DNA of 64,000 bases from an uncultured Candidatus Saccharibacteria bacterium (GTDB lineage: Bacteria; Patescibacteriota; Andersenbacteria; UBA10190): positions 70,021 to 134,020 of the forward strand of contig CAZSUC010000001.1 of assembly GCA_964610055.1 (NCBI GenBank), read 5' to 3'. Shown in pieces: positions 28,987 through 64,000 of this stretch. Positions within the stretch are counted from its first letter, which is position 1; every line of letters begins with the position of its first letter. Both the position numbers and the translations under genes were made by a program. The notes below the pieces were generated by a model. It worked only from the letters and a program-made list of their open reading frames with translations. It was not told the DNA's origin and searched no databases.

Positions 28987-31508
28987 TTGTCGTGGCAACG
29001 GTCTGGTTAATTCGTTTTCGTAATGCTCAATTATTTCTCTTAGCTTTTTCCTTATTAGCTGGACAGCTTATTCGTGTGCCTTTGCCTGGTCAGGGTGGCG
29101 GTTTATTGCTTAGTGATATTGCTGTTCTGATCGTCTTGTTTTCTATCTTTTTAGATTTTATAAGACATAGACATGAGCTTGATTACATTAAATCGCAGTC
29201 TGCTCTAGTTATACTTTTCCTTTTTTTACCTTTTATTTTTTGGTCAGGTTTTACCTTGATTATTAATTCGTCTTGGTTGCTTTGGTCACAAATTTTAATC
29301 GCGGCTTCGTATTGGATTAGACTAACTGCTTATTTATTGGTTTTTCCTGCTCTAATTTGGCGTTTTGCTCGATACCCCCATGACCGTATTGTTATGCAAA
29401 AATATTTTCTCTGGGCTGTTTATGGAGTAATTGGATTGGGGCTAATTCAATTATTGTTTTTACCTCAACTTGATACTCTCGGAAAGTTTGGCTGGGATCC
29501 TCATCAGTTTCGTTTGGTGTCAACCTGGCTTGATCCTAATTTCGTCGGAGGATTTTTGTGTATCGGACTTTTTACTCTTCTTGCCTATAAAACTCGTTTG
29601 CGACCCGTCTCTGTATTTGTCACTCTTAGTGCTTTAATCTTAACCCGGTCTCGTAGTTCTTGGCTTGCGTTATTGCTCGTTATTCTACTCATTTCTCCTG
29701 TGATGATTTTTATGAGACTTCGGCGCTTATCACGTCCTCGTTTAGTATTGACTGCTAGTTTATTTAGCTTATTAGGCTTATTCCTTACACTTTTCATTCT
29801 TTTTCTCGGCAATCGTGCTCTCGGCCTTATAACTTACGATCCTACTGTTCAACTGCGCCAATCCTCTCTCTTGTCTGTCTGGCAAATCGTTCAAACGCAC
29901 CCCTTCGTTGGTGTTGGGTATAATGCTTATCAATTTACTGCTCTGCAATCAGGTTTGATTAGCGATTTTAATATCCATTCGCGCGCCGGAGCGGATAATA
30001 GTTTTTTAACGCTCTGGGTAACGACAGGCTTAATTGGAGTTATTTTATTTTGTCTGCCCTGGGTCGTTTTGATTTGGCTGCACTTTCGTCATTATTTACG
30101 CATCAATCAAGCTCTTTCTTTTGCTGTTATTTGCGCTATTTTGTTCCTGTTTTTTCAAGCCCAGTTTGTTAATAGCTTTCTTTATGCTCACTTGCTTTTA
30201 AGCGTGATTATACTTAGTGCGATTAGTTTTTATCCTGTCTCAGATCATTGTCTTTCGGTCAAAACAATCCGTCCTTTATTTTTTTTCTTGCCTAGGCGAA
30301 TTTTTCCTATTAGTTTTCTTATTTGTCTTATACCCGCTTATCTGATTCGTTTTCGTCTTTTTAACATCCCTACTAATCTCTTTGAGGTTTTTGTCTTAAT
30401 ATATTTTTGTTTTATTTTAATAATTCCTTCGTGTCGAAAAAAATGTCAGCAATCTACGCGACAAATACCCCTTCTCTTTTTGCTTACAATTACGTTTTTT
30501 GTTATTGCCTCTATTGTTTCTGTTATTATTTCACCTAATCTTTTGTCTAGTCTTGGGGTGTTAAAGGGGTGGATTATTATTCCGTTAATATTTGGTTGGC
30601 TGGTTTTTGTATCCATTACTCCTAATAACGCCAAATCTTTTGTGATTTTACCGCTTGCTTTTATTGGGGCGTTTTCTGCCCTGATTAGTTTATCTCAGCT
30701 TGGTACAACTAATCGTATTTATGGGTGGTATGATGTTCCTAATTCATTAGCACTTTGGTTAGCTCCTATTTTTGTTCTGACTTTCTGGGGCGGTCTAAAT
30801 CACTCTCGTTATCATCGTCTTTTTCTGTATCTTTCTCTTCCTATAGCTATTGCCTTGCTAGCAACTCAGTCTGTTAGTGGAATGATCGCCATTATTATTT
30901 CATTGGGTTCGGGAGCCTGTTTTTGGATTTCATCTATTAGTCGCCGCCATGTTTTAATTATCTTGGCTCTTAGTTTAGTTATTATTATAAGTTATCTTAG
31001 TGTAACTAACCGTCTTAATTATCTCTTTTTGCCGCTTACCGAACATCACCCTAATTCTATTTCCGTTCGTTTTCAGCTCTGGGACGTTTCATTAACACTT
31101 CTTAGTCAACACGGGTTGCTAGGAATTGGTTTAGGCCAATTTGAACCCGCTTATCAATCAGAAATTCATCGTCGTTTTGCTGTTTCGTATAAACCTACTC
31201 CATTACCCGAGTTCGTTTTTCGTGATCCGCATAACTTATTCTTTTCTTTTTGGCTCAACACCGGAATTATCGGTTTGGCCTCATTTTTAGCCTTGTTGTT
31301 TATTATTTTCCGCTACACTTTTCACAGCAAAAATCTTACCAGTAATCAAAAAGGCCTCATCTTGGCTTTAATTTGCTTATTAGTTTTTGGTTTAAGCGAC
31401 ACTATTTACTGGAAAAATGACCTCTCGGTGTTATTCTGGCTGCTGATTTTTTTACTTCTTAAATATTCTCATCCTGGGTCTTGGCACAAACCGTCTTTAC
31501 ATATATAA
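28926..31508 (+). CDS. large polytopic membrane protein with two O-antigen ligase/Wzy-like modules
   Basis: 860 aa, more than 20 TM helices. Two segments resemble Wzy_C (LTRSRSSWLALLLVILL and ATQSVSGMIAIIISLGSG regions). The start is uncertain because it overlaps the upstream GT2. Confidence 0.5.
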   Translation: MASLSMASSFLPLLLLAGALIVVATVWLIRFRNAQLFLLAFSLLAGQLIRVPLPGQGGGLLLSDIAVLIVLFSIFLDFIRHRHELDYIKSQSALVILFLFLPFIFWSGFTLIINSSWLLWSQILIAASYWIRLTAYLLVFPALIWRFARYPHDRIVMQKYFLWAVYGVIGLGLIQLLFLPQLDTLGKFGWDPHQFRLVSTWLDPNFVGGFLCIGLFTLLAYKTRLRPVSVFVTLSALILTRSRSSWLALLLVILLISPVMIFMRLRRLSRPRLVLTASLFSLLGLFLTLFILFLGNRALGLITYDPTVQLRQSSLLSVWQIVQTHPFVGVGYNAYQFTALQSGLISDFNIHSRAGADNSFLTLWVTTGLIGVILFCLPWVVLIWLHFRHYLRINQALSFAVICAILFLFFQAQFVNSFLYAHLLLSVIILSAISFYPVSDHCLSVKTIRPLFFFLPRRIFPISFLICLIPAYLIRFRLFNIPTNLFEVFVLIYFCFILIIPSCRKKCQQSTRQIPLLFLLTITFFVIASIVSVIISPNLLSSLGVLKGWIIIPLIFGWLVFVSITPNNAKSFVILPLAFIGAFSALISLSQLGTTNRIYGWYDVPNSLALWLAPIFVLTFWGGLNHSRYHRLFLYLSLPIAIALLATQSVSGMIAIIISLGSGACFWISSISRRHVLIILALSLVIIISYLSVTNRLNYLFLPLTEHHPNSISVRFQLWDVSLTLLSQHGLLGIGLGQFEPAYQSEIHRRFAVSYKPTPLPEFVFRDPHNLFFSFWLNTGIIGLASFLALLFIIFRYTFHSKNLTSNQKGLILALICLLVFGLSDTIYWKNDLSVLFWLLIFLLLKYSHPGSWHKPSLHI

Positions 31509-31921
31509 GGAGATTGACAATCATCGTTGTCTTGGCATAAAGGATTTTGCAGCTCACTCGCTAATTGCGGGTTAATCGTATTTAGTATTAGATACGAAGC
31601 CAGAGCCAAAACAATCCCAAACAAAGCAGATTTTATCCACGTTTTCGCTGTTTCCACTTGACCTCCATTTCCGCCCGCTGTCATGTATAAATACCCTCCC
31701 ACCACAACTGCAATAACCCCCGCGACAACTATAAGCGCCATAAATAATTGAAATATTTTATTTATATAAGCCACAAAACCAGATTGTGCCACTGCGTCAA
31801 TGCTTCCAGAAAATCCAGGAATAGCTACCTCGAAATCGCCAAAATCAGCCCTCGTTATAGGTGTTCTAACAGTCAATAACAAAATCGCTATGCTAACCCC
31901 AATGATTATCTTCTTTAACAT
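31469..31921 (-). CDS. small secreted two-helix protein, candidate VirB2/TrbC-like pilin, with a Cys-rich C-terminal tail
   Basis: Signal peptide followed by two long hydrophobic helices separated by the loop TAGGNGGQVETAKTW (pilin-like topology). C-terminal CQDNDDCQSPYICKDGLCQDPG. Confidence 0.35.
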   Translation of the reverse strand: MLKKIIIGVSIAILLLTVRTPITRADFGDFEVAIPGFSGSIDAVAQSGFVAYINKIFQLFMALIVVAGVIAVVVGGYLYMTAGGNGGQVETAKTWIKSALFGIVLALASYLILNTINPQLASELQNPLCQDNDDCQSPYICKDGLCQDPG

Positions 31922-31938: not shown

Positions 31939-32556
31939 TTATTTACCAAAAGCATAATTCATCACCCCAGAAACACCGTTTACTATTACACTTCCTATCT
32001 GTCCTACACCATGGGCCGCGCTATTTGCTATCAGATTTCCTACGTACCCTAACCCTGTCACAGAATTAGATAATATATCGATGTCAGTAATACTTAAAAT
32101 TATTAGAACGCTAATCAATATAGCTGTTCCTATTATCATCCATTGTAATATTGTTCCGGCTATTATCCCCCAAAACAGCCATTTTCCAACAACACTACCC
32201 GCTAATTGATCTCCTAAAAATGCGCCTATAATTCCTCCTAACCATGTCCCTGCCCCTGGTAATATAAAAGACCCTATTGCCGCTCCAATCACAGATCCTA
32301 ACCATACCCCAATTTTTCTTCTGGTTTTTTTCTCCAAGGAGTCTTTTTTTTGAGAATGGTTCTTGTTTTTCTGCAATGCTAATTTATTTTTAGCATAATC
32401 AACACCTCGAGATATTACCATGTTGCTTAAGTCCTGCGGCTGTGACACATGCTGCTTTGGTTTTTTTGTTTCTGAGCGTCTCAGCTGAGCTGCCTTTAAT
32501 CTTGCTGCCCTGACTTTTTCTTCCTTGTCTCTGTCTTGTTGGTTTAAACTAGGCAT
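31939..32556 (-). CDS. hypothetical membrane protein (Lys/Arg-rich N-terminus, glycine-zipper TM helices)
   Basis: GxxxG-rich hydrophobic C-terminal half; no family recognised. Confidence 0.35.
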   Translation of the reverse strand: MPSLNQQDRDKEEKVRAARLKAAQLRRSETKKPKQHVSQPQDLSNMVISRGVDYAKNKLALQKNKNHSQKKDSLEKKTRRKIGVWLGSVIGAAIGSFILPGAGTWLGGIIGAFLGDQLAGSVVGKWLFWGIIAGTILQWMIIGTAILISVLIILSITDIDILSNSVTGLGYVGNLIANSAAHGVGQIGSVIVNGVSGVMNYAFGK

Positions 32557-32563: not shown

Positions 32564-34414
32564 CTATACCTCGTTTGATTTCCTTTGCGCGGCCATCTCT
32601 TGTTTTGCTGCTTCAATCGCTAGAACTTGCTGAGGATCTGATGTAATAATTTGATCCTCAGCATAACTCGCTACAATTTTAATCGCCACATGTTTTAATC
32701 CGGCAAAAAAGATTCCTTCTCCTACATCGCTTTCTAATAATCTAAACTTTTCATGATCAGTTAAATAAAATACATCTCCTAATAAGTCGATCGCAGCCGG
32801 TGATTGACGCAGTAATAGTTGAATCGAAGAATTAGTGACAATTGGCTTGCCGTATTTTGATTGCAGAAAATCAGAAATATCCTGAGTGATTGTCGTAACG
32901 CCCAAGTAATACTTTCGTGCTCTTTTTGCCATTGAAAACAAGAAACGAGCTGATTCTTCGTGCTGCATCATAATCCAAGCCTCGTCTATAACTAGTAATC
33001 TTTTTTTAAGCTGACTCCGGATCCTATTCCAAATAAATCCTAAAATAACATACATTGCTATTGGTCTTAATTCGTCTTCCATGTCTCTCACATTAAACAC
33101 GACTAATTGTTGATTTAAATCAATATTTGTTGGTCGATTAAACACTCCTGCAAATGTACCCTCTACAAAACGCTCTAATCGTACCGCAATATTTCCTCCT
33201 CCTTCCATGTCTCGCATGATATTGAAAAAATCTTGCAACGTTGGCGTTTCCGGCTTATTCCAGCGCGTTTGCGGAGTAATATCTTTAATCGCATATGCTT
33301 CCCAGAGTCCGCGGTCAACCAACCCCTGTTCTTCAGGTGATAGTCCGTCTACCATTAGCGAAATCAATCCTACTAAACGCACGATATTTTCCCTCAAAAC
33401 TCCTTCTGGACTATCTTCTTCTCCTAGTTCTGGTAAATCGAATGGATTAATACGATGATCAGATGCAATGGCAATTTTTAAGTATGCTCCTCCCACTGCC
33501 TCAGCTAGATAACGATATTCTTGTTCTGGGTCAATTACCATTACTTCCGTTCCAAACATTAAACTGCGTAAAATCTCTAACTTTACCGTATATGATTTAC
33601 CAGCTCCGGATTTGGCAAAAATTACCATATTTGCATTCTCTAATCCAAATCGATCAAATAAAACTAAACTGGAATTATGTAAATTAATGCCATATAAAAC
33701 GCCAGAGTCCGATGTTAAGTCAGAACTTACAAAAGGAAAGCTAGTTGATAGTGGTGAAGAATTCATGTTGGTATTTACCATTAACTCATCCCGACCCAAT
33801 GGTAATGTTGAGGTAAAACCTTGTTCCATTTGGAATAACGCTGGTTTTGTATAAACTAAACGTCCTTCTAATAACACCTCAACCTGCGAGATGATGTCGT
33901 CTAATTCTTCCTCTGTCTTACCGTATATAGTTAGATACAAACCAAACTGAAAAAACTTTTCTGTACCTTGAACTAATCGATCACGTAATTCTTCAATATC
34001 ACGAAAAGCCGTTTCTAACTGTGGATCTCTGATTTTTCCAGCCTCGGCTTGCATTGAAATTGACGCCGATACTTGAGTCGCTCTCTTTCTTAATTCTTTC
34101 AGAATACTACTTGAACTTTGCGGATAAACAAACATCCCAACGTCAAATTCAATGTCAAAATTAACAATTGGCGCGAACCAATTCGTATCTAAATAACGAG
34201 GATATGTGATCACAAACAAGGTTTGGGCAAAACGACCATCTATCTCAATATACCTCGGAGTTACCCGAAAAGCGCTTGGAGCCACAATGTCTCGTAAAGA
34301 TGATACTCCTTGATTGTATTGATTAATTGCAGCCTGGTCTTCGACACTTGATGTCGATTTTTTTGCTCCTTCTTTTCCTTTTAAAAAAGTAGTTACGTCT
34401 CCTAAAACTCCCAT
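32564..34414 (-). CDS. virB4: VirB4/TraC/CagE-family T4SS ATPase, C-terminal ATPase portion
   Basis: Walker A MVIFAKSGAGKSYTV, Walker B LLVIDEAW; 616 aa. The ATG at 34412-34414 has GGAGG six nt upstream. Confidence 0.8.
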   Translation of the reverse strand: MGVLGDVTTFLKGKEGAKKSTSSVEDQAAINQYNQGVSSLRDIVAPSAFRVTPRYIEIDGRFAQTLFVITYPRYLDTNWFAPIVNFDIEFDVGMFVYPQSSSSILKELRKRATQVSASISMQAEAGKIRDPQLETAFRDIEELRDRLVQGTEKFFQFGLYLTIYGKTEEELDDIISQVEVLLEGRLVYTKPALFQMEQGFTSTLPLGRDELMVNTNMNSSPLSTSFPFVSSDLTSDSGVLYGINLHNSSLVLFDRFGLENANMVIFAKSGAGKSYTVKLEILRSLMFGTEVMVIDPEQEYRYLAEAVGGAYLKIAIASDHRINPFDLPELGEEDSPEGVLRENIVRLVGLISLMVDGLSPEEQGLVDRGLWEAYAIKDITPQTRWNKPETPTLQDFFNIMRDMEGGGNIAVRLERFVEGTFAGVFNRPTNIDLNQQLVVFNVRDMEDELRPIAMYVILGFIWNRIRSQLKKRLLVIDEAWIMMQHEESARFLFSMAKRARKYYLGVTTITQDISDFLQSKYGKPIVTNSSIQLLLRQSPAAIDLLGDVFYLTDHEKFRLLESDVGEGIFFAGLKHVAIKIVASYAEDQIITSDPQQVLAIEAAKQEMAAQRKSNEV

Positions 34415-34415: not shown

Positions 34416-35117
34416 TTAACCTCCTCGTGGTTTTAATTCCTCGACTTGTAACTGGCTAGCGTTTTGTAGTCGTTGGTTTCTGCTTGTTACTGGATTATAA
34501 GCATTGTAATACAATTCTAATAATTCTTGAGTCTGCAACGGCACCACTCGTAATCCCATGCCACGCAATCCCGTGGCCACCTGATTCGCGCGTTGCAATA
34601 ATTGGGTGCGGTTATGTTCAAATTCCTGGGCGTTCATTTTAAATTGCCCTGTTGCACCCTTAACTCCTCGCCCGACTCGTTCAAATACACCTTCCTTTTT
34701 ATTCTGCTGTGCTGCAAACGGAACCGTAATAAAAAACGTTTTTGTCATAATATCACTATTTTTAACCAGTTCACCGACAAAATTAATATACTCATCCATT
34801 TGTAACCGCAATAATTCGTTCTGCTGCTTATCTCTTAATATTTTAACTTGTTCTAAATAAGGCGTAATATCCATTTTTCGACTACTCACGTTCACCTGCA
34901 CTGGAAAATCCAAGCTATTTAAAAAGTCTTGATAAGCATAAATAATAGCGTCCTGTTCATCCTGAGATTTTAGGGCAAAATTAATTGAAGACACCATCAA
35001 AACCATTCGCATGGTACCGTCATTTAAAATTGCCACTCCGTCTCGAATTTCGCTAATTCGAACCAATTGCTGGGATGGACGACCTTTTATTACCCCTGAC
35101 TGCATTTCTTGAGCCAT
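34416..35117 (-). CDS. VirB4 N-terminal domain (CagE_TrbE_VirB-like) encoded as a separate ORF
   Basis: VRISEIRDGVAILNDGTMRMVLMVSSINFALKSQDEQDAIIYAYQDFLNSL resembles the N-terminal region of VirB4/TrbE. Its stop TAA at 34416-34418 lies inside the SD-ATG spacer of the downstream ATPase ORF. Confidence 0.55.
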   Translation of the reverse strand: MAQEMQSGVIKGRPSQQLVRISEIRDGVAILNDGTMRMVLMVSSINFALKSQDEQDAIIYAYQDFLNSLDFPVQVNVSSRKMDITPYLEQVKILRDKQQNELLRLQMDEYINFVGELVKNSDIMTKTFFITVPFAAQQNKKEGVFERVGRGVKGATGQFKMNAQEFEHNRTQLLQRANQVATGLRGMGLRVVPLQTQELLELYYNAYNPVTSRNQRLQNASQLQVEELKPRGG

Positions 35118-35137
35118 GCCCTCTAGTATACCAGATT

Positions 35138-35584
35138 TTATGTTTTAACTTCTGTCTCACCGCCAATAATATCCGTTTCGTCCTCTTGAACTACATGTCC
35201 TTGGGTCTCAAGCTCGCGCGCTCTTTCTGCCAAGCTGAGGCTTGGACCAGTCTGAGCAATTAATTCACCATATTCATCTCCGCTTACGCTTAATAATTTT
35301 AATTGATTAGTCCTTCTCCAAATATATAGTTGTCCTTTCCCGTAAAATGTCACCGCATTCATTACGACCTGAAACAATGTCTTCTGATTAATTTTTACAT
35401 GAGCAAACATGACTGCTAGTCCAATTACTGGCAATGCTATGGTTAAAAACAACGATAAATCAACCACTAAAAACACTGGTATTAAACCAAGCACCGCTCC
35501 GACGTAAATTAAAAATTGTCGCAAAGTTAATGGCCCAACAACCTTATCTTCAATATCGACGAATTGTGGAACTTGAAAACGCAT
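35138..35584 (-). CDS. PrgI-family / VirB3-like small T4SS membrane protein
   Basis: MRFQVPQFVDIEDKVVGPLTLRQFLIY followed by two TM helices, the pattern of Gram-positive PrgI/VirB3 analogues; sits immediately upstream of VirB4. Confidence 0.5.
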   Translation of the reverse strand: MRFQVPQFVDIEDKVVGPLTLRQFLIYVGAVLGLIPVFLVVDLSLFLTIALPVIGLAVMFAHVKINQKTLFQVVMNAVTFYGKGQLYIWRRTNQLKLLSVSGDEYGELIAQTGPSLSLAERARELETQGHVVQEDETDIIGGETEVKT

Positions 35585-36120
35585 TAGTAGTTAAACCGCC
35601 GCCGTTCCCCGGTTGGTTTATCGCTTATTGACGGCAATGTTAAAGGTGGGCGTTTTGTTTGTTCCTGTGTTTTTAAATCCAGTACGTTTCGCACTCCTGC
35701 CGCTGGACCTGAAGTCGTCGATTGATCAGTTGATTGGGCTGTTGTGTTTTCTGACTTTAATTTTTCTAAGTATTGATTATATTCCATTGCCACCGGAGCA
35801 AATAATTCTTGTTCAATCTGGCGAGATACATTAGCTGCCGCATTTGTAGGAACACCAACTTCACTTACAAGACTACTCTCAAAATTCTTCCATTCTTTAA
35901 TTCCTAAAAACACTGACAAATACAAGAATATCACTTTCTCATATTTACTATCCGGTATATGATTTTCTCTTAAAATACCTAAAATAAAAGAGCCTATTTT
36001 ACCGGACGATAATAAGCGTTTAATGTTTTCTGGCGCCTGACTAAAACGGGATAAATATTGCTTTTCTGTCACTTCCGGATATTTCAACAATATTCTAATT
36101 GGAGCTTTAACTTCTTCCAT
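35584..36120 (-). CDS. hypothetical protein in T4SS-like operon
   Basis: 178 aa, one central hydrophobic segment; no family recognised; 1-nt overlap with the neighbouring genes. Confidence 0.4.
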   Translation of the reverse strand: MEEVKAPIRILLKYPEVTEKQYLSRFSQAPENIKRLLSSGKIGSFILGILRENHIPDSKYEKVIFLYLSVFLGIKEWKNFESSLVSEVGVPTNAAANVSRQIEQELFAPVAMEYNQYLEKLKSENTTAQSTDQSTTSGPAAGVRNVLDLKTQEQTKRPPLTLPSISDKPTGERRRFNY

Positions 36121-36123: not shown

Positions 36124-37992
36124 TTATTTATTCTTCTTATCCTTTATTCTTCTTTCTGCTTTATGCAGAGCCTCAATTAATTTTTCATCATTGGTATTAT
36201 ATATTTCTTGTTTTGTGGCATCTGACATTTTCTCAACCATAGCATCGTTATTTAATACAGCTGTTACTCTGGTTCTGTCAGCGTCAGATTTCATATTCTT
36301 CACCATTGTCACAGTCATGTTATTTGTCTCTTCCGTTGTTAACTGCTCTCCTACTCGTTCGTCCCTTAAAACTGTCGGTGATGTTCTACTAATAGCGGAT
36401 AGGTTTCCTTGCGTAACGCCTCTAGAGCGTAAATCACTTGCTTGATTTTTAGCTTCTTTTGTTTTAGCGCGTTCTTTTGAATCAATCGCGTTATAAGCCT
36501 TAGTTCCCCATGACTTTTTCATTTTCTCTTCTTCCGTCTTTTTATCGGCATCTTCCCATGACTTAACAAGCGATCGCACTGGTCGAGTGACTCCCTTGTA
36601 TGCCTTTTGTGCTCCTATAGCACCCAAAAAACCTACTGGACCTGCCACCATTGTGCCAACAGTTTTTGGATTATTCCAAGTCCATTGAGCTGCTGATTTT
36701 GCCTTACCCTTTACCGTGTTTAAAACTTCTCCCGCTCCCGCCATGCCCGCAATCTTTCCAGCCGAAGCTGCTGCCAGCATTAAAGCTATTGAAATAATAA
36801 TATTTAACACTTCGGATAATTCTCTTGGCACTCCTGTGCCTGCTTTAATTGCGCCTCCGCCAATTACGGTTGCTAAAATTAAAATCAAAAGGGCAATTGG
36901 CCCAAATAACACCCATGCAATAAATTGCGTCCACCACTTTCTTGCTAATCCATCTGCTCCTGGAATCGCAATCGCTAAATATGCTGCCGGAGAAGCAATT
37001 AATAATAAAATTAACATAATATATCTTATCAAAAACCCAATCGTTGCTCCTGCCATTCCGATTACCAGTCCCCACGCCAGTATAGTTGTTTTAAGAACAT
37101 TAATTGGCCCACTCCAACTATCTCCTTCGGTCGGTAAATAATAACTGACTCCAAATGCGGTAGTTTGATAAAAATGATAACTTAAATAACCACTTTGTTT
37201 TAAAATATCCGTTCCCAAATTAGTTAAACTGCTAGTTGTTACTGTTCTAACTAACACAGCCATAGCTAATCTGGAAGCATCAATAATGATACCGCCGATT
37301 ACTAAACTAAAATTGATGAGCAAAGCAGCTGCTAGTAATCGAGGCAAAAAGCGTTTTGGTTGAAATTGATCCAGCCTTAAAGTAAAAGCAAATGCTATAA
37401 ATAATAGCGCCAAGATAAAACCGAGATTGGCAAACCCCTGTACAACCGGCCAACCCGCCTGAACCATCGGGTTAGTTACAAAACTTCCAATCGAAATAAA
37501 CCAAGTTAGTAAAAATGAACATAACCATAATATCCAAATTGCCAAATTTACCCCCATGCTAAAGGCTCCGTTTAAAAACCAAATAAGTTTTAATTGCCAC
37601 CAGTCCGGCTTTGTTTCGGAATCAGTTTCTGTTATTTGTGCTGCTTGCTCAGCCGTACAAGCAACTAAGTATGGTCTTTTTTCTGTTTTACCTTCACCTA
37701 AAATATCAGAACCAAGAACATCTGAATATCCATTAAGATTTACTAATAAATAATTTTCTGGATAAGAAAGGATTATGTCGTCATCGCTTACACCCCAAAC
37801 CGCCTTTACACATCCTAGATTCTTTAATTCCTCATAAGTCATCGATGTACGTTTTGAGATCGATATATCTCCTTCGTTTATATAATGACTATTATCTTGC
37901 GCAATAATATGTTTTCCTGGAATTAATAAAACACTCCCCATCAAAAAGACGAACAAAGCATTTTTAAAATAACTATTCATTAACTTGAGCAT
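36124..37992 (-). CDS. polytopic membrane protein, VirB6/TrbL-like candidate
   Basis: 622 aa; signal peptide, extracellular N-terminal region, then at least 7 TM helices and a charged C-terminal tail; positioned in the operon like VirB6 analogues. Confidence 0.4.
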   Translation of the reverse strand: MLKLMNSYFKNALFVFLMGSVLLIPGKHIIAQDNSHYINEGDISISKRTSMTYEELKNLGCVKAVWGVSDDDIILSYPENYLLVNLNGYSDVLGSDILGEGKTEKRPYLVACTAEQAAQITETDSETKPDWWQLKLIWFLNGAFSMGVNLAIWILWLCSFLLTWFISIGSFVTNPMVQAGWPVVQGFANLGFILALLFIAFAFTLRLDQFQPKRFLPRLLAAALLINFSLVIGGIIIDASRLAMAVLVRTVTTSSLTNLGTDILKQSGYLSYHFYQTTAFGVSYYLPTEGDSWSGPINVLKTTILAWGLVIGMAGATIGFLIRYIMLILLLIASPAAYLAIAIPGADGLARKWWTQFIAWVLFGPIALLILILATVIGGGAIKAGTGVPRELSEVLNIIISIALMLAAASAGKIAGMAGAGEVLNTVKGKAKSAAQWTWNNPKTVGTMVAGPVGFLGAIGAQKAYKGVTRPVRSLVKSWEDADKKTEEEKMKKSWGTKAYNAIDSKERAKTKEAKNQASDLRSRGVTQGNLSAISRTSPTVLRDERVGEQLTTEETNNMTVTMVKNMKSDADRTRVTAVLNNDAMVEKMSDATKQEIYNTNDEKLIEALHKAERRIKDKKNK

Positions 37993-39557
37993 TGGTCAGG
38001 GAATAAACTGCAAAACGCATCCCCTAATGAATTTTGAATACTGCTCCAGATATCATCTACGCTAACACAAAAACCACAGCTATCGTTTGTGGCTTCATCA
38101 TGACGAAAAGTATCATTTGTTAATGCTAATAAAGCTGCTCGTGATCCACTCTCAAGCTTTGGATCAATTGCACTTACATTAGGAGATAAATCAGTTTTTG
38201 GCTCATCGTAAAAGTCGTACAGTCCGTTATATAATCCAGCAATAACGTCAAAAATACCCGCCACTTCTCCGCTCTCAGAACCTTCGCTTGTCTGGTCACT
38301 ACGTATTCCTTGTACGGTTCCGCTATCGCTACTACCGCGATCAACTAACTGTTGAGATCCTGGTGTATCACCTATTTCCGAATTAGCATATTTCAAATCT
38401 GTCACTTCTCGACTTAACGTGCCCGCTAATTCCCCTAACATGGCAATTTTAGCGCTCGCCGGTGTTGTAATTTCTCGGCTAATTGTTCTGTAATATACTC
38501 CGTTAGCACCTGCTGCATTAGCAGTTGATACTCCTGCTACGGTACCAGAAGTACTACCAGTTGCAATTACTTTTTCAGTATCCGCTTTCGCTCCATCTTG
38601 TTGTTCTGTAGACAATTGGCTCGCAACTTGATCTCCCGCAGAAATAGCACTTGAGAGAAAACTTGTTGGTGCATTCGCTAGTTGAGTAAGTTTATGAAAT
38701 ATTTCATCATCTGGAGCGCTGTCAGATAATGTTATTTCGCCTGTCTCGTCGTCTTCCACTAAATAATCAAATAAATTTGGATCAATTGCGGAATCGGTTT
38801 GAGGCCATGTACTCAAATGATTTACTGCCGCTTGTTGGGTGTCAGTTGTAGCATTTTCTCTTAAAGCAGCTAAGTTTGAATCAAATGGCAAAATATAATT
38901 AGGAGCATCTGAATCAGTCGTATCCGCTGCTTTTGATCTTAAATTTTGATCAGTAGACATGCCAGAATTCATAGCCGCCCCAATCCCAATCTCAATCTGC
39001 GCAGCTTGATTTTGAGCGCTTGTAACAAAAGCCGTGTCCTGATCTTGCAATGGTCCTGCCTCTGTACTACACGCTGCTCGTCCCAAGGCTCTTTCGCAAA
39101 ACACCCGCACCAATTCATCTGTATAATTTCGACGCGCTTTTTCTAGGCTCGATTGCTGTAGCTGATAGGCTGTCCATAAATCATTGCCTTCTAAGGTTAT
39201 ATTTCGCGTCACTACCGCTGCTAAATCCGTTTTAGTCGCATCTAACGCATCGTCTGATTGTGCCTCGAATCCCGCCTCGGTTCTTTTGTCTAATAAACTT
39301 TCTCGTGAAAAACTATCATCTTCATCGGCTGGCTCCACATAATCAGCCTGATCTAAGGCCGCTAAAATATTAAAAAACAATTGTTGTTGCCCTACTGCCG
39401 TGTAAAAAACAGCATGTGGATCAGCATGCGCAGACGGTATTGCACCTAAAAGGCCAAATATTAGCACAAACAATAGAATCAACGCAGTCCCGCGCAATTT
39501 TGTCACACTCAAACTTTGCCTACGGCCAGGCTTTTCCATGCGCTTATTATATACCAT
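37980..39557 (-). CDS. secreted Ser/Thr/Ala-rich protein with Cys-rich C-terminus
   Basis: N-terminal signal/anchor (LILLFVLIFGLLGAIPSAHA). C-terminal SCGFCVSVDD...FCSLFPDQCSS. Confidence 0.4.
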   Translation of the reverse strand: MVYNKRMEKPGRRQSLSVTKLRGTALILLFVLIFGLLGAIPSAHADPHAVFYTAVGQQQLFFNILAALDQADYVEPADEDDSFSRESLLDKRTEAGFEAQSDDALDATKTDLAAVVTRNITLEGNDLWTAYQLQQSSLEKARRNYTDELVRVFCERALGRAACSTEAGPLQDQDTAFVTSAQNQAAQIEIGIGAAMNSGMSTDQNLRSKAADTTDSDAPNYILPFDSNLAALRENATTDTQQAAVNHLSTWPQTDSAIDPNLFDYLVEDDETGEITLSDSAPDDEIFHKLTQLANAPTSFLSSAISAGDQVASQLSTEQQDGAKADTEKVIATGSTSGTVAGVSTANAAGANGVYYRTISREITTPASAKIAMLGELAGTLSREVTDLKYANSEIGDTPGSQQLVDRGSSDSGTVQGIRSDQTSEGSESGEVAGIFDVIAGLYNGLYDFYDEPKTDLSPNVSAIDPKLESGSRAALLALTNDTFRHDEATNDSCGFCVSVDDIWSSIQNSLGDAFCSLFPDQCSS

Positions 39558-40463
39558 TTATGACAGGTTGTATTTCGTTTCTAAGGCAGTAACTGCTTGT
39601 TCTATCTCATTAAACACATCAGCTAAGTCCCCAATCTTTTTAGCCCCAATCAAGCCTTTAACTAAATCACCAGGCATCTCTGTCATCATCTCGACCGCAT
39701 CCGCCAGGGCCGTTGAAGCGGCAATATATTTTTTGTGCAAATCAACCACTTCTTCCGGCGCAGAAATGCTTTTTAGTACTAATACATTTTGACGTAATGC
39801 TAAAAGCATGTTTTTCATTTGATCTGGATCAACCAATTGACGGGCAAACGCCTCTTCAATATCACTGCTGCTCACCGCCGTTAAATCTTTGTTATGAGTA
39901 GCAGAAATACTATCTAAATAAGCTTTAATTGCCTCTGCTCCTGTCGTATTTTCTGTTTTAATATCCGTATCGGATATAGTTGGCAATAATTCGCCCGCAT
40001 TCTCATTTATATATGCTGTAATATTGTCTTCGCTCATAATTTCTGCCTGATCAATATCTCGCGGCAAGCCACTTAAATACTTTCCAGTTTCTGTACTAGT
40101 ATCAAACACAGCCTCACCTGTTTCAGGCTTAATTTCATCGTTTGGACCAGCTGTTAATGGATCTCGCCCTAATTGAATTTCATCTAAGTCATCCACTCCG
40201 TCTGAATCAGTATCAGCATTATTTGGGTCAGTTTGATATAATACTTCAAAGCTATCTGGAATTCCGTCTCCATCAGAATCTGTCGTTCCGGCCACTTCCC
40301 CAGCGTTCGGTGTTGGCGAAGCTTGCGCAATTTGCTGACCCCCGCTGTCTTTAGTTGCTAAATGATACAAGGCGACCCCTCCTTGCCATAAGCCATACGT
40401 CAAACCGAAAGCCATCGCTGTAACCAATGCAGTTGTTAAACCTAGTCTATTCGTTGCTTTCAT
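39558..40463 (-). CDS. secreted protein with thrombospondin-type-3-like Ca-binding Asp repeats (paralogue of 42860-43822)
   Basis: DSDGDGIPDSFEVLYQTDPNNADTDSDGVDDLDEIQLGRDPLTAGPND; signal peptide. Confidence 0.5.
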   Translation of the reverse strand: MKATNRLGLTTALVTAMAFGLTYGLWQGGVALYHLATKDSGGQQIAQASPTPNAGEVAGTTDSDGDGIPDSFEVLYQTDPNNADTDSDGVDDLDEIQLGRDPLTAGPNDEIKPETGEAVFDTSTETGKYLSGLPRDIDQAEIMSEDNITAYINENAGELLPTISDTDIKTENTTGAEAIKAYLDSISATHNKDLTAVSSSDIEEAFARQLVDPDQMKNMLLALRQNVLVLKSISAPEEVVDLHKKYIAASTALADAVEMMTEMPGDLVKGLIGAKKIGDLADVFNEIEQAVTALETKYNLS

Positions 40464-40488
40464 ATAAATTTATCATATCACAATTTTT

Positions 40489-42888
40489 TTAGAGCCAAGG
40501 TTCAGTATGCCTTGTGTCTAACAAACACTCTTCTGTTGAGGTGACATACATGTCCAGCTTTGTAATTGGTTGGCCTGAACCACACGTCGCCACTCCACCA
40601 CCACTGCTCACAACTTCTCCGCAATGACAACTACAATCGGTCGCCCAGTAAGGATCTCCGGGCTCTCCTCCGCATGGCGTTCCTGAAACAGCTGCATCTT
40701 CAATAACCGTATTTTCACCCCCACTAACATATTCTGGAGGGGCGATGACACCAGCTTTAGCTGGCGCATTTCCACCCTCACCCTTTAAAACAAACTCCGG
40801 ATAACCATTCGACTCGCACCAAGTTGTCTCTACCGCCGCCGCAAATTCAGTCGCCTCCATACAGTCTGTCGCCACAGTTTTTGGTGCATCTAAAGCCACT
40901 TCCCAATATTCCAAGCGAATTTTATCATCCGCTGATTTATCATCATCCGCTTGAGTCTCATAAGTTGCTCTCCAAACCGCGTTAAATCCTAGTCGCCATC
41001 TCTCCGGCATTAAAATAATCAAATTATTAAGTGGTTCCTTATCGTCATTATCAAATTGGTCTAAAGCCTGATTAGCTAAATTCTGCCATTCATCTGGGCC
41101 AGAAGTATTATCCTCTCCTGTAAATGTCAAAAATGATAGCTGAGTTTGAGTATAGGTAGTTGTACGATTATCTAAATTTTCTTCATATGCTTGTTTTACT
41201 GCTACTAAGGATGCTTCTAAACCACCGTCATTTGCTTCTCCGGGACAAGCTATCCCAATTGATTCTTTTGCGTTTGCAATCGCCGCCCGCGCAACTGGAT
41301 CAAATTTTTCCTTTCGATCAGTTTGCATCTCAGCATAATTATTAGCCAACTCTTTTTGAGCTGATTCTGTTTGCTGCTGCCAATTACTATAGGCCTGAGT
41401 TAGTTCTTGCCTAGCTGCATCGGTGTCTTTGTTCCCGTCTAACACCGCTCCTAATGTGTCAATAACGCTCTGAGCATGATCATAATATATCTCCCTTAAT
41501 TTTTCTTTAGCTGCAATCTTGTTTTTTATCCCTAATAATTCATTTTCATGAACCAGGGTAGAAAAATTTCTCCCACTTTGCCATAACGGTTTCATATATG
41601 GAGCTGCTGGATCATCTTCGCGCAAGAAAGCATCTTGAAAAGATGGATCAGACACTACGTCATCAGCTAAAACGCTACACTCTCCGGGTAAAATTACCGC
41701 AATCGCTTCTAAAAATCTCTTTCCTAATTTCATGGCTTCATACCATGGCGTGGCCACATCAAATCTATTGCCTAAATCTGGTATTGAATCAACGCACCCA
41801 ACCTCTCCCGGACCGCAAATAATTGCCGGTTGTTTAGAAGCTAGCGGGGCAGAAGAAACATCCGGTGCTGAACAGTCATTACTAGGAATAATATGTGTGG
41901 TCACTGTTTTTTGGGCATTGTCACATTTTGACTTACAGCTATCAAAACAATTCTCCTTACACTCTTCTAAATTATCCTCGCATTGAGCTTTACAAGATTC
42001 TTTGCCACTTGTCCCGTCTGGCGCTTCCAGGTAACACCAATACTCCGGTAATGTATTGGGATCGTCTAACCACTCCCATCCTTCTGGTAAGGTGCCTGGC
42101 CTTATCGGCGGACAAGGTCTTATATATGTTCCCGGTAAGTTCACAATTTCACCACCGCTCAATTCTCCTTCCGTATCTTCGTCTTCTATCTCTTCACAAT
42201 CTTCAATACATATATCATATTCTTTCTCGCATTCCTCATAGCAATTTGGAATACATTTTTCCATGCATCTATATTTGTCATGTAAATTAGCGCAACTATA
42301 AAAAGAAGCCGTTACTTTTGCTGTTGCGGGAGCAATCGCTTCTACAAACGTTACTGTTACAGTTAAATCTAGCTCTTGGCCGGCATTAAAAGCATATAAT
42401 GGGTCATTTAAAAACTCCCCCACCTGCGCGCCCACATAATCATCCGGCAGGTCATTATTAATAATTTTTGCTCCGTCCGGTGCGTCAAAAGTAATTTTTA
42501 AGTTATACGCTGGCCCAGTTCCCACATTACGAATATAAACCCGATAGGTTATCGAATCCCCCTCAATTACGCAATAATCTTTATTAATTAAGAAAATCTC
42601 AATCTCAGGTGAGCCCGCGTTAACGTCACATGATGGCGCTGGCCCTATCATGGCAGCGACGTCTACTCCGTCTGTTGCCGCCTCAACACGTGGATCAGAA
42701 TTAAAATTACGCGAGATATATTTACTAGTAAATTTCTGATAATTAAAATCTTGTGATATTGGTACTGATATTTCTGCTTTTGTTTCCATCGGTAGCCACC
42801 ACCAGCTCAGACCTATCAGTAATCCTGCTAGCCACTTCGCCTTGTTTCGTCTGTGCATACTATTCGACTGAATTGGCCAACCGTTCAA
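40489..42888 (-). CDS. large secreted cysteine-rich acidic protein (799 aa)
   Basis: Signal/anchor at the N-terminus. Dense CxxxC/CxC blocks (CMEKCIPNCYEECEKEYDICIEDCEE, CKAQCEDNLEECKENCFDSCKSKCD). C-terminal CSCHCGEVV...TCGSG. Confidence 0.45.
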   Translation of the reverse strand: MNGWPIQSNSMHRRNKAKWLAGLLIGLSWWWLPMETKAEISVPISQDFNYQKFTSKYISRNFNSDPRVEAATDGVDVAAMIGPAPSCDVNAGSPEIEIFLINKDYCVIEGDSITYRVYIRNVGTGPAYNLKITFDAPDGAKIINNDLPDDYVGAQVGEFLNDPLYAFNAGQELDLTVTVTFVEAIAPATAKVTASFYSCANLHDKYRCMEKCIPNCYEECEKEYDICIEDCEEIEDEDTEGELSGGEIVNLPGTYIRPCPPIRPGTLPEGWEWLDDPNTLPEYWCYLEAPDGTSGKESCKAQCEDNLEECKENCFDSCKSKCDNAQKTVTTHIIPSNDCSAPDVSSAPLASKQPAIICGPGEVGCVDSIPDLGNRFDVATPWYEAMKLGKRFLEAIAVILPGECSVLADDVVSDPSFQDAFLREDDPAAPYMKPLWQSGRNFSTLVHENELLGIKNKIAAKEKLREIYYDHAQSVIDTLGAVLDGNKDTDAARQELTQAYSNWQQQTESAQKELANNYAEMQTDRKEKFDPVARAAIANAKESIGIACPGEANDGGLEASLVAVKQAYEENLDNRTTTYTQTQLSFLTFTGEDNTSGPDEWQNLANQALDQFDNDDKEPLNNLIILMPERWRLGFNAVWRATYETQADDDKSADDKIRLEYWEVALDAPKTVATDCMEATEFAAAVETTWCESNGYPEFVLKGEGGNAPAKAGVIAPPEYVSGGENTVIEDAAVSGTPCGGEPGDPYWATDCSCHCGEVVSSGGGVATCGSGQPITKLDMYVTSTEECLLDTRHTEPWL

Positions 42889-43822
42889 TTTCTTGAGTGA
42901 TCAACGGGTAGTATTGTCTATCAATCGTATCTAACTGTTGTAAAGCCACGAGCGATCTAATTGGATCCGTATTCCATAATGCAATCTCATCTAAAGTCGC
43001 TGCTAATAACTCAGTGTATCCTAATAACAATTTATGTAAGGCAACGGCTGTCGTTGGTGCCTTCTCGTCAAATAAAGATTGCTGATATTGTCTTACTTGC
43101 AAGCTCATAGAATCAATCCTGGCAGTATTATTATTCGTATATAACTCATCTAACGCCTTAGATAAGGTCTGGGAATCGGATAATTGCTGAATAGATCTTG
43201 CCTGATTAAGATATAAACTCAAAGTTAAAGTAGAATTATCAGTTGTTGTTTGAATAGCTGACTCTTGCACGGTTGGCAGCTTAGTAATAATTGATTGGGT
43301 CTGCGCATAAGCAATCATGTTTGCTGTTGTTGTTTCTTCTGTGCTATGAGTTTGAGTGTATGCTTCGGTTAAATTTGATTTCTCGGCATATAAATCTAAG
43401 TCAGATTCAAAATACTGATCTACTTGTAATGGAGCTAAATCTAGCGCTTGCAAATCCTGACCCGGTTCATAATTATCAGGCAAGGTATCATTAGGCCCAG
43501 CAATTGTTGGATTATGTTGGTTAGTCACCTCATCTCCATCTAAATATCCGTCTCCGTCTGTATCTGCTGTATAAGCATCTGTTCCCCATAAAGCCTCATC
43601 AGCATTAATCAATCCATCCTGATCCGCATCACCATTTGGATCTTCTTCTGCTAGTCTTTGTGTTCCTTCGCTCGCAACCAATAATACCGGAGTGCTTGTT
43701 GCAACTTCTGTGGTGTCTGTACTTGTATTACTTCGCAAGCGCTGAATTACCAATACCACCGTGCCTGCTATCATGCCGACAATAAGCACAATTAAAATAC
43801 CCAAAATTAAACGTCGTGGCAT
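42860..43822 (-). CDS. membrane-anchored protein with thrombospondin-type-3-like Ca-binding Asp repeats (paralogue of 39558-40463)
   Basis: N-terminal TM helix; DADQDGLINADEALWGTDAYTADTDGDGYLDGDEVTNQHNPTIAGPND, colinear with the repeat block of the paralogue. Confidence 0.5.
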   Translation of the reverse strand: MPRRLILGILIVLIVGMIAGTVVLVIQRLRSNTSTDTTEVATSTPVLLVASEGTQRLAEEDPNGDADQDGLINADEALWGTDAYTADTDGDGYLDGDEVTNQHNPTIAGPNDTLPDNYEPGQDLQALDLAPLQVDQYFESDLDLYAEKSNLTEAYTQTHSTEETTTANMIAYAQTQSIITKLPTVQESAIQTTTDNSTLTLSLYLNQARSIQQLSDSQTLSKALDELYTNNNTARIDSMSLQVRQYQQSLFDEKAPTTAVALHKLLLGYTELLAATLDEIALWNTDPIRSLVALQQLDTIDRQYYPLITQEIERLANSVE

Positions 43823-43842
43823 AGCCTCTAGTATACCACGAC

Positions 43843-46844: not shown

Positions 46845-48269
46845 ATGTCAAGATTGTATCATGCTTCTAGGTCTGGTATTATGCCTCAACGTAACAGTAA
46901 ACACCTAATACCAAACTTATCTTTACAGCGGGGTGCGTGCGCAGGAAAGATTTTAGCGAGGGGACCGCATCCTTATAAAGGGGTTTTCGGTATTTTACAT
47001 CGTCCACAACATTCTTTAGATTCGTCTAAAGAGCATTTGCCAGGACTCGAGGAGGAAAAAGCAGAGCGTCAATCACGCTCTTCTCGCCGTCATTTAGTCT
47101 CGTTACAGTCACAACGGAGTACAGTTAATTTTAACCTAATTAAAGCACTTACCTCTAAAAAAACAGCGGTTCATGCCGCTTTTTTGCTTTTAATTATAAT
47201 CACTGTTTTTCAGGGTCGATCCATGTCAGGCGCCACTGACACCTCTATGCTATATAACCTGATTGCCGGTGATGAAATAGTTGAAGGTCCTCTTGATCCT
47301 TCAGCTTATGCCCAAACCGACGCTCCTGGCATTGGCGGAGCTCGTTTAGCCGCTGCTGAAGGTGGATTATCTGTTGAGATTATTACTTTTGATGATCCTG
47401 AGGTTGAGTTTGCCGCCACTTTAGGCGGCAATGCTGTGATTGCTCCGCTTTCTCCTATTGTCGCTGAGCCCGGGTCTAACGAAGAATCAGAAACTAGCTC
47501 AGACGATAGCCAGAAGAAAACTGAACCGTTTATCTACACCGTTGAAGACGGCGATACTATCGCTGGGATTGCTGCCAAATTTGATATCAGCACTAATACT
47601 GTCTTATGGGCTAACGGGCTTTCTAGTCGTGATGTTATTAATACCGGTGATCATCTTACTATCCTGCCTACTACTGGTGTCTTGCATACCGTTAAGTCCG
47701 GTGAAACTATCTCTGAAATTGCTGAAGAATATGATGTCGATGCTGACGAAATTGTTGCTTTTAATAACATCGACGAATCCAAAATTCGTATTGGACAAAA
47801 ATTAATCATTCCGGATGGATATATCCAATCAACTTCGTCATCGAGCAGCTCTAGTAGTAATCCAGTCGCCACTGTTGATGATGGCCCTGTTCCTGCTTCC
47901 GCCACGGTTACTGGTTCTGGTCTAGTCTGGCCAACAACAACCAAGCATATTTCTCAATACTTTGTCTGGGGTCATACTGGAATCGATATTGATAATCGTG
48001 CTAAACCTCCGGTCTATGCTGCTGCCTCTGGTACAGTTGAGTATGCTGGTTGGCTTGGCGGTTATGGTAATCTCATCATCATTAACCATGGCAATGGTTT
48101 GCAAACCTATTATGCTCACTTAGAGAAGTTCTATGTTAGCAAAGGCGAAACCGTAACCGCCGGAGCTGCTATCGCCAAGATGGGCTCCACTGGTCGTTCC
48201 ACCGGTCCTCACTTGCACTTTGAAGTTCGTCGTAACGGCTCCCCTATCAATCCGTTAGGAATGTTTTAA
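46845..48269 (+). CDS. peptidoglycan hydrolase with two LysM domains and a C-terminal M23 metallopeptidase domain
   Basis: LysM (YTVEDGDTIAGIAAKFDIS...; HTVKSGETISEIAEEYDVD...). M23 (HTGIDID...HLHFEV). Long N-terminal region with one TM segment; the exact start is uncertain. Confidence 0.8.
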   Translation: MSRLYHASRSGIMPQRNSKHLIPNLSLQRGACAGKILARGPHPYKGVFGILHRPQHSLDSSKEHLPGLEEEKAERQSRSSRRHLVSLQSQRSTVNFNLIKALTSKKTAVHAAFLLLIIITVFQGRSMSGATDTSMLYNLIAGDEIVEGPLDPSAYAQTDAPGIGGARLAAAEGGLSVEIITFDDPEVEFAATLGGNAVIAPLSPIVAEPGSNEESETSSDDSQKKTEPFIYTVEDGDTIAGIAAKFDISTNTVLWANGLSSRDVINTGDHLTILPTTGVLHTVKSGETISEIAEEYDVDADEIVAFNNIDESKIRIGQKLIIPDGYIQSTSSSSSSSSNPVATVDDGPVPASATVTGSGLVWPTTTKHISQYFVWGHTGIDIDNRAKPPVYAAASGTVEYAGWLGGYGNLIIINHGNGLQTYYAHLEKFYVSKGETVTAGAAIAKMGSTGRSTGPHLHFEVRRNGSPINPLGMF

Positions 48270-53762: not shown

Positions 53763-53991
53763 ATTAATAATTGCTATTATCAATACTCGAAGGTCCTAAT
53801 TTTCGAGTGAATATATTTGAAGATAACCAACTTAGTAACTAACGATAATACATCACTAGTCAAGTCAACATACGTTCATACAACTGGACCTATTAGTACG
53901 GATCGGCTCAACACATTACTGTGCTTACACCTTCCGCCTATCAACCTGGTCATCTTCCAGGGGTCTCATAATGAAACTTTATCTTAGAGTG

Positions 53992-54023
<32 letters not shown>

Positions 54024-54215
54024 ACCAGCCCGACTTAGCTACCCAGCCATGCTCCAGTAACGGAACAACTGGTACACCAGAGGTCGGTCCCTTCCGGTCC
54101 TCTCGTACTAGGAAGGACGCTCCTCAAGTTTCCACGCCTGCGACAGATAGGGTCCAACCTGTCTTGCGACGGTTTGAACCCAGCTCGCGTATCGCTTTCA
54201 TTGGCGAACAGCCAA

Positions 54216-54247
<32 letters not shown>

Positions 54248-54261
54248 GTGAGCCGACATCG

Positions 54262-54586: not shown

Positions 54587-54623
54587 AGGTGCCAAACCCC
54601 ACCGTCTATGTGGACTATTGGGT

Positions 54624-54660
<37 letters not shown>

Positions 54661-57026: not shown

Positions 57027-57062
<36 letters not shown>

Positions 57063-57442: not shown

Positions 57443-57489
<47 letters not shown>

Positions 57490-58378: not shown

Positions 58379-58412
58379 TTTTAAAACCGCTTCCAGAGGA
58401 AGCGGTTTTAAA
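58379..58412. other. perfect palindromic hairpin in the 23S leader region
   Basis: TTTTAAAACCGCTTCC AGA GGAAGCGGTTTTAAAA (12-bp stem flanked by A/T tracts). Confidence 0.5.

Positions 58413-62510: not shown

Positions 62511-64000
<1,490 letters not shown>

Follow-up and report, generated by a model that had tools for sequence, protein, structure and literature searches.

The locus

We describe here three neighbouring genes at the head of a type IV secretion system (T4SS) locus. The window, by which we mean the whole stretch of DNA that was analysed, comprises 64,000 nucleotides from an uncultured Candidatus Saccharibacteria bacterium that GTDB places in Andersenbacteria, which are ultrasmall and epibiotic. 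A tightly packed, co-directional gene array occupies its minus strand from 43822 to 31469, and the first three genes encode A320 (42860..43822), a bitopic membrane protein, C789 (40489..42858), a Sec-exported cysteine-rich protein, and B301 (39558..40463), a second bitopic membrane protein and the paralogue of A320. All three reading frames lie on the minus strand where a preliminary description of this DNA had placed them. That description had also associated them with a T4SS-like machine, which is borne out by the VirB4, pilin, PrgI and TrsD genes of the locus and by a linkage that is kept in 15 loci despite rearrangement. The locus is a chromosomal T4SS of the monoderm, MPF-FATA-like type, with A, C and B as its first cistrons.

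Two paralogous membrane proteins with TSP3-type repeats

Neither A320 nor B301 contains a cysteine, and none was seen in A or B in any genome examined. The N-terminal transmembrane (TM) helix of A320 covers about residues 1-31, and in B301 it corresponds to the helix at residues 4-37 of the structural model. This signal-anchor helix is predicted to leave nearly the whole of either protein outside the cytoplasm. The two proteins align colinearly over 256 residues with 23% identity (BLASTP, E=1e-12), and the shared motif blocks are in register: DADQDGLINADE in A320 faces DSDGDGIPDSFE in B301, ADTDGDGYLDGDE faces ADTDSDGVDDLDE, and PTIAGPND faces PLTAGPND. A profile-profile comparison of the A family with the B family gives E=7e-25 (hhalign). 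The parts that follow the GPND motif remain homologous on their own (probability 95%, E=2e-8, 165 columns), and the C-terminal halves are therefore a conserved domain, predicted by AlphaFold2 to be helical in B301, and not the low-complexity regions they were first taken for. A320 and B301 are true and ancient paralogues.

The conservation of the motif block was followed in 12 full-length B orthologues and in 6 A orthologues taken from the neighbour genes of related contigs. Twelve positions (D62, D64, D66, G67, D70, E73, D84, D86, D88, G89, D92 and E95) are invariant in 12/12 B orthologues, and the same calcium-loop columns are also conserved among the 6 A orthologues. Since the same calcium-ligand columns are kept in both sets, the conservation is positional and mere richness in aspartate is excluded, which upholds the colinear block that the preliminary description had pointed to. 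A and B are separate orthologous families, with 36-50% identity inside each across genomes; for A320, orthologues in 8 loci are 40-50% identical.

Each protein carries two repeats of 22 residues with the pattern DxDxDGxxDxxE, at residues 65-108 of A320 (window 43499-43630, minus strand) and residues 62-105 of B301 (window 40149-40280, minus strand). Of the likeness to thrombospondin type 3 (TSP3) and OmpA-like repeats that had been proposed, the TSP3 part stands, in its bacterial form. B301 matches the bacterial TSP3 repeat of Pfam (PF18884) with 33.4 bits (E=4e-8, cut-off 25), as do 11 of the 12 B orthologues (best E=8e-12), while A320 with 22.2 bits stays under the cut-off of 25. However, neither protein matches the eukaryotic TSP_3 family (PF02412) at E<=1 or the OmpA domain (PF00691) in Pfam, and the latter is carried only by other, unrelated TSP3-bearing proteins. 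The loops would bind calcium in an EF-hand-like manner.

The AlphaFold2 model of B301, built from the 12-sequence alignment (pLDDT 81), consists of the TM helix, a disordered spacer (residues 37-58), the two loops and an all-helical domain at residues 125-297 (window 39573-40091, minus strand), which is mostly at pLDDT 82-96. The C-terminal domain of A320 is likewise helical and conserved. A Foldseek search of the PDB with the B301 model returned nothing at E<1, and among PDB sequence profiles the only match of B was to the TSP3/EF-hand stretch of Bap. The B-family alignment, when run against representative genomes, found only the generic TSP3 repeats of unrelated phyla and no full-length relative. 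It would appear from the model that the helical domain of A and B, of about 190 residues, has a fold absent from solved structures. A VirB8-like identity of A and B was considered and rejected, because the B301 model is all-helical instead of having the alpha+beta NTF2-like fold of VirB8 and finds no relative in the PDB.

Architecture of the cysteine-rich protein

When read from the ATG at 42858, C789 has 789 amino acids (aa) and matches the database protein P0001 with 100% identity and coverage. This ATG, not the TTG at 42888, is most likely the start on the sequence evidence. The clustering of cysteines that had been reported for a 799-aa protein thus stands, with 30 cysteines (3.8%) in the protein, but its length most likely does not. 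The N terminus is a typical signal peptide (about residues 1-28), with a classical ASA cleavage site in the closest relative, and C789 itself lacks any anchor to the membrane or the wall. The C family numbers 49 cluster representatives at E<1e-30 in an exhaustive profile search. The conserved core of the family spans about residues 330-789 and includes 12 invariant cysteines.

Five parts follow the signal peptide, all encoded on the minus strand. The first is an immunoglobulin (Ig)-like beta-sandwich at residues 84-187 (42298..42609), whose closing strand lies at residues 316-324. An alpha-hairpin with a ladder of cysteines is inserted in the last beta-hairpin of this Ig domain (residues 189-312, 41923..42294). 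The N-terminal half of the conserved Cys-rich core (residues 325-419, 41602..41886) holds the invariant C348, C355 and C394. It is followed by a long helical bundle (residues 420-671, 40846..41601), whose longest helix has 64 residues and which holds the invariant C538 and C666. At the C terminus there is a Cys-rich domain (residues 672-789, 40492..40845) with the invariant C681, C729, C742, C744, C746, C759 and C778. This C-terminal domain is kept in every family variant, and the bundle is missing from short variants of about 400 aa.

The AlphaFold2 model of C789 has a pLDDT of 69 and a pTM of 0.41. It places the beta-sandwich at residues 86-187, closed by the strand at 316-324, and the two arms of the hairpin at residues 189-222 and 286-311 (pLDDT ~90), linked by a disordered acidic loop; the helical bundle is mostly above pLDDT 90.

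The Ig domain is probably of the CLIPPER/DUF11-like, adhesin-stalk type. DUF11, now called CLIPPER, is the Ig stalk domain of fibrillar adhesins (bioRxiv 10.1101/2025.04.25.650565; PDB 9ifr). C789 itself matches the Pfam model (PF01345) weakly, with 17.9 bits against a cut-off of 24.6, and matches were obtained for 15 of 23 C-family members with a best E of 8e-10. Additionally, residues of about 60-190 of the C profile also match giant DUF11-repeat proteins. The earlier view of the middle protein as secreted and Cys-rich is supported. The isopeptide bond of CLIPPER domains is unlikely to form in C, since of its triad (Lys, Asn and a catalytic Asp) the lysine and the aspartate are not conserved: the lysine column (K93) reads N7/K6/T3 and others, and the aspartate column (D125) Q7/T6/D3 and others, in a register set by the DUF11 motif and not by structural alignment.

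Fold searches with the C model against the PDB (Foldseek) gave a best E of 3e-3, to Ig domains, designed bundles and ClyA, with 9ifr among the matches, and a search of BFVD gave no match. VirB5/TraC did not match C in the PDB, by fold or by sequence. Among PDB sequence profiles the helical bundle matched apolipoprotein A-I/E at E=2e-3, which is at noise level, and we put this match down to the composition of amphipathic helices.

The cysteine ladder

The cysteines of the hairpin are placed at C198, C202, C206, C210, C217 and C221 in the N arm and at C289, C293, C300, C304, C308 and C312 in the C arm, with C249 and C275 in the disordered acidic loop between the arms. The numbers of residues between successive cysteines are 3,3,3,6,3 in the first helix and 3,6,3,3,3 in the second, which are mirror images of each other. 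Such mirrored spacings imply a zipper of six disulfide rungs. Because cysteines spaced by 3 and 6 fall on the same face of a helix, the pattern is most simply explained by an antiparallel hairpin whose two helices are zipped together by disulfides, and the bonds themselves would follow this pairing.

The rule extends to the relatives. The insert is found in 5 of 23 C-family members, all of which obey the mirror rule, with 2, 4-5, 6 or 9 rungs, while the other 18 have a Cys-poor loop of 16-26 residues in its place; in the family alignment its position is between the last two Ig strands. The longest ladder, that of P0067, is a perfect palindrome of nine rungs (3,3,3,6,3,6,10,3,(8),3,10,6,3,6,3,3,3). 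P0089 has 7,3,6,3,(12),3,6,3,7, and P0002 has 3,7,6 ... 6,7,3, where C206 and C304, which are predicted partners, are missing together. The mirror symmetry has a shuffle p of 4e-4 in P0001, 7e-5 in P0067, 7e-3 in P0002 and 2e-3 in P0089. With 3,(9),3, P0068 has one mirrored pair, which is too short for significance by itself.

Conservation in related loci

We mapped the A, B and C profiles, together with the T4SS proteins of the window, onto 15 related loci. Every C-family gene in these loci directly adjoins an A or B gene. The bracketing of the Cys-rich gene by the two paralogues, as first described, is found here and in most loci, which have the order A-C-B, but not in L088 and L093, where the order is C-(B')-B-A. 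In L089 another CLIPPER protein and a leucine-rich repeat protein stand ahead of B, and the C variant of L003, with 402 aa, lacks the helical bundle. All loci that are long enough continue with D525-like, VirB6-like, F178-like, PrgI, TrsD, VirB4 and pilin genes, and in each of these the homologue of D525 is at or near the downstream end of the trio. No A-, B- or C-family gene was found away from a T4SS-type locus in the related contigs retrieved.

The surroundings are conserved as well. All long relatives keep one order of UvrD, RsmA, Wzy-type ligases, glycosyltransferases, YidC and dnaA around the locus, and the rearranged loci are for this reason a stronger argument for linkage than the counts of adjacent genes. 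The identities of A, B and C are 30-50%, like those of RsmA and UvrD, which led us to reject unusually fast evolution of the trio, and VirB4 is unusually conserved.

An extra Cys-containing protein of 458-491 aa occurs in some relatives (L003 6339-7715; L004 10907-12382, reverse strand). It has an N-terminal TM helix and a HELGH motif of zinc-metalloprotease type, its position and orientation vary between relatives, and it has no counterpart in the window.

The remainder of the operon

The genes downstream of B301 are all on the minus strand. D525 (37980..39557) is bitopic or secreted, with an N-terminal TM helix, 6 cysteines and no family assigned. The next protein, of 622 aa (36124..37992), is polytopic with about 7 hydrophobic segments and is called VirB6-like from its position and topology, having only a faint match to the NCBIfam conjugal-transfer family MMCAP2_0566. 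It is followed by a conserved 178-aa protein (F178, 35584..36120) and a 148-aa protein of the VirB3-like PrgI family (35138..35584; PF12666, 36 bits, cut-off 27). A TrsD/TraC-N-like protein of 233 aa (34416..35117), related to the N-terminal region of VirB4, matches the N-terminal region of conju_CD1110 at E=4e-10 and TrsD at E=8e-4 in NCBIfam. The VirB4-family ATPase has 616 aa (32564..34414; NF045971, 358.6 bits, cut-off 325). A glycine-zipper membrane protein of 205 aa (31939..32556; Gly-zipper_Omp, 24.0 bits, cut-off 25) and a VirB2-like T4SS pilin (31469..31921; PF18895, 35.5 bits, cut-off 26.6) complete the array. Upstream of the locus are rsmA and uvrD, and downstream are Wzy-type ligase and glycosyltransferase genes, yidC and dnaA (21361-22836), the last of these about 9-21 kb from the locus.

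VirB4 is 75-85% identical to proteins of Candidatus Andersenbacteria, and on this basis Candidatus Andersenbacteria are the closest named relatives of the genome. The window open reading frames (ORFs) that were scanned include neither a relaxase nor a coupling protein. An integrative and conjugative element was considered and rejected, because a relaxase and an integrase are both missing from these ORFs and all relatives have the locus at the same chromosomal position; the even GC content, about 0.38-0.43 from 32 to 54 kb, also counts against it.

Several side observations concern the T4SS genes. VirB4 is 75-83% identical across genomes, compared with about 50% for UvrD and 39-49% for RsmA, an unusually strong constraint for a secretion ATPase. 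An intein that includes a LAGLIDADG endonuclease splits the VirB4 gene of L004 (18099-20903), giving a 1294-aa product with Intein_splicing and LAGLIDADG_3 domains. A 23S_rRNA_IVP gene (PF05635) lies inside the T4SS locus next to PrgI and TrsD in L003 (16592-16969) and L089 (7629-8009) and is absent from the window. A protein with two LysM domains and a Peptidase_M23 domain is encoded on the plus strand at 46845-48269, divergently and just upstream of uvrD, and is found in the same place in L003 and L004; hydrolases of LysM/M23 type have been discussed as possible substitutes for VirB1 in Patescibacteria (PMC12102498).

Promoter-like elements

An extended -10-like element, TGGTATACT, is located at 43830..43838 on the minus strand and ends 8 nt ahead of the A320 start codon. 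An identical copy at 35125..35133 on the same strand ends 8 nt ahead of the start codon of the TrsD-like gene. This is its only other occurrence in the T4SS locus, and there is none between B and D. The form TGnTATAMT is present at the place upstream of A320 in 8 of 10 related loci, though its flanks are not conserved. Across the window the motif is not enriched, with 6 found and 5 expected, and a generic scan for sigma-70 promoters and terminators gave counts at shuffle level. Both elements are putative promoters at the level of a consensus match. The identical elements suggest two transcription units, A320-PrgI and TrsD-pilin, and the mRNAs of both would possibly be leaderless or have very short leaders.

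The gap between rsmA and A320 is also spanned by an 11-bp stem (43813-43842, minus strand; centroid -16.6 kcal/mol; z=-2.5 for the minimum free energy of 81 nt). Its 5' arm contains the -10-like element and its 3' arm the A320 start codon, and a T-rich run comes next. The stem may serve as a terminator for rsmA or as a hairpin for translational control, and it is not obviously conserved in relatives.

Other features of the window

The 23S rRNA gene (53871-58156, minus strand) measures 4286 nt against a model of 2925 positions and contains an ORF (55188-55895) with a LAGLIDADG homing-endonuclease domain (Pfam, E=1e-26). The extra stretch looks like an intron or insertion of a kind common in the rRNA genes of Patescibacteria. 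The spacer between the 16S gene (62513-64000) and the 23S gene is about 4.3 kb long (58157-62512) and includes two tRNAs as well as genes for an enzyme of the CCA-adding/poly(A) polymerase family (60691-62163), a phosphoribosyltransferase and a mechanosensitive-channel-like protein. At 4217-5899 and 7028-9109 the minus strand encodes a PilB-type T2SSE ATPase and a 693-aa lamin-tail/PKD/OB-fold protein, which is possibly a surface protein for DNA binding or uptake.

Interpretation

On balance we lean towards reading the trio as an extracellular surface module, stabilised by calcium and disulfides, in which C, kept at the T4SS by A and B, mediates host contact. We favour it because A and B are anchored and mostly extracytoplasmic, C is exported and unanchored and has modules of adhesin type and rich in disulfides, and the genes for all three lie together with those for membrane components of the T4SS. 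In such a module A and B, stiffened by Ca2+, would sit in the membrane beside the VirB6/VirB3/VirB4 translocon, where they would probably pair via their homologous helical domains, retain C and present it at the cell surface. The disulfide-stabilised C would then be the part by which the T4SS contacts or adheres to the host cell, with an alpha-hairpin, zipped by about six inter-helix disulfides, projecting from its Ig domain. The A-B contacts, the contacts of A and B with C and the role in adhesion are ones that we infer.

There are several points that weigh against this reading. The model of C is only moderate, with its Cys-rich core poorly modelled and of low confidence at residues 325-419. 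Neither fold nor sequence searches of the trio proteins assign a function, and the adhesin or tip complex that had been suggested is thus not established by any match. The window ORFs of at least 150 aa include no gene of Dsb, VKOR or thioredoxin-like type. Some relatives (L003, L089) have a truncated C or another protein in its place. Adjacency is weaker evidence than the counts suggest, because the whole region from UvrD/RsmA to dnaA is colinear in the lineage. As A, B and C evolve no faster than RsmA, they have no signature of host-driven diversification. Finally, the published annotation tables of the Saccharibacteria locus of Southlakia, the sole one that has been tested genetically, include nothing annotated as TSP3 or resembling the trio.

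We think it unlikely that A and B are instead a scaffold of the T4SS channel, replacing the bitopic components of VirB8/VirB10 type, most of which escape detection in Patescibacteria, and that C tips the VirB2-like pilus as a minor subunit resembling VirB5. Such a role would suit the bitopic layout of A and B, whose short N-terminal cytoplasmic end is as in VirB8, and the reported lack of VirB8 homologues in most classes of Patescibacteria (PMC12102498). A VirB2-like pilin is encoded in the locus, and the long helical bundle and globular parts of C are loosely VirB5-like. However, the all-helical B301 model is not NTF2-like and its Foldseek matches in the PDB are all at E>1, C does not match VirB5/TraC in the PDB by fold or sequence, and the absence of the bundle from the variants of about 400 aa would be odd for an essential tip subunit.

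It is rather improbable that the trio is a general envelope module, for example a calcium-dependent organiser of the wall or S-layer with its surface protein, that is functionally unrelated to the T4SS and is its neighbour only through colinearity. The constant gene order from UvrD to dnaA around the locus in all long relatives would be explained in this way, and TSP3 repeats are common in unrelated envelope proteins (OmpA-, sortase- and SLH-linked). Against this, A and B genes still stand beside D and the VirB6-like gene in the rearranged L088, L093 and L089, the promoter-like element precedes A with none found between B and D, and the contigs retrieved hold no gene of the three families off this type of locus.

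The reading of the trio as a surface module can be taken further, though we regard the following step as quite doubtful. The disulfide-zipped hairpin, with its 0 to 9 rungs, might be a rigid spike that, together with the apolipoprotein-like bundle, engages or breaches the envelope or membrane of the host. If this were so, the trio would be the long-sought host interface of a Patescibacteria T4SS and could share in acquiring the host lipids or macromolecules that these bacteria cannot make.

Least probable of all, and very much so, is that C is a disulfide-rich cargo, exported by Sec and then released or delivered by the T4SS as pertussis toxin is by Ptl, with A and B as membrane factors for assembly or holding: the Sec signal peptide, the many cysteines, the lack of a coupling protein or relaxase among the window ORFs scanned (T4SSs without coupling protein, Ptl and Brucella VirB, are discussed in PMC12102498 and PMC12857230) and the weak apolipoprotein- and ClyA-like matches of the bundle would fit, but a monoderm has no outer membrane that needs a second export step, these matches do not rise above noise (E=2e-3 or worse), and an Ig domain of adhesin-stalk type is typical of retained surface proteins.

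The value of the trio lies in providing conserved extracytoplasmic candidates for the host-contact part of a T4SS in one class-level lineage. The trio proteins can be expressed, localised and tested for dependence on Ca2+ and disulfides. The multi-rung disulfide-zipped hairpin is a simple, length-tunable element that may also be of interest to protein engineers.

Comparison with known systems

The small Tim proteins belong to the twin-CX3C helix-loop-helix class. Proteins of this class and the alpha-hairpinins of plants (PMC7191063) resemble the hairpin of C in having antiparallel helices cross-linked through mirror-ordered motifs of CX3C type. However, they have two disulfides and are free-standing with about 30-90 residues, whereas the C family has hairpins with a predicted 2 to 9 rungs, inserted in the Ig domain of a large bacterial surface protein. 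We claim no homology between them.

The Ig domain of C shares with CLIPPER stalks the modelled Ig-like beta-sandwich, Pfam matches at the level of the family and 9ifr among its Foldseek matches. It differs in being a single copy and not a tandem array, in that the isopeptide lysine and catalytic aspartate are not conserved, and in the insertion of the helical hairpin.

Among bacterial TSP3 proteins, CglD and MtsD of Myxococcus and members of the OmpA family have the same tandem 22-residue DxDxDGxxDxxE loops, and it is the TSP3 stretches of CglD and MtsD that the NCBIfam matches cover. In contrast, A and B have only two repeats and no OmpA, VWA, SLH or sortase domain, and what accompanies the repeats is a TM anchor and a helical domain without known relative. 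With VirB8, PrgL and TcpC they have in common an N-terminal TM helix, an extracytoplasmic domain and a place in a T4SS operon, but they differ from these in being predicted all-helical and in having no sequence or fold match to them.

T4SS genes are widespread in Patescibacteria, where they are chromosomal, often near dnaA and mostly without relaxase (Quinonero-Coronel et al. 2025, PMC12102498). The locus described here belongs with these chromosomal, dnaA-proximal systems because of its gene content, its nearness to dnaA and its Andersenbacteria VirB4. It resembles the MPF-FATA-like T4SS of Patescibacteria in VirB4, PrgI/VirB3, the VirB6-like protein, the VirB2-like pilin and TrsD, a component described for the phylum in the same survey, as well as in its chromosomal position near dnaA with no relaxase or coupling protein nearby. 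That survey detected no adhesins, and the A/C/B trio is not among the components it catalogued (PMC12102498). Our literature search found no paper linking Andersenbacteria with type IV secretion. Southlakia epibionticum requires its T4SS for epibiotic growth (Wang et al. 2023, PMC10633639), and the locus there encodes lysozymes, six pilins and two giant proteins of VirB6-like type. The T4SS as such was therefore known already, and what this lineage adds to it is the trio, a lineage-specific and previously undescribed front end with an unusual multi-rung hairpin.

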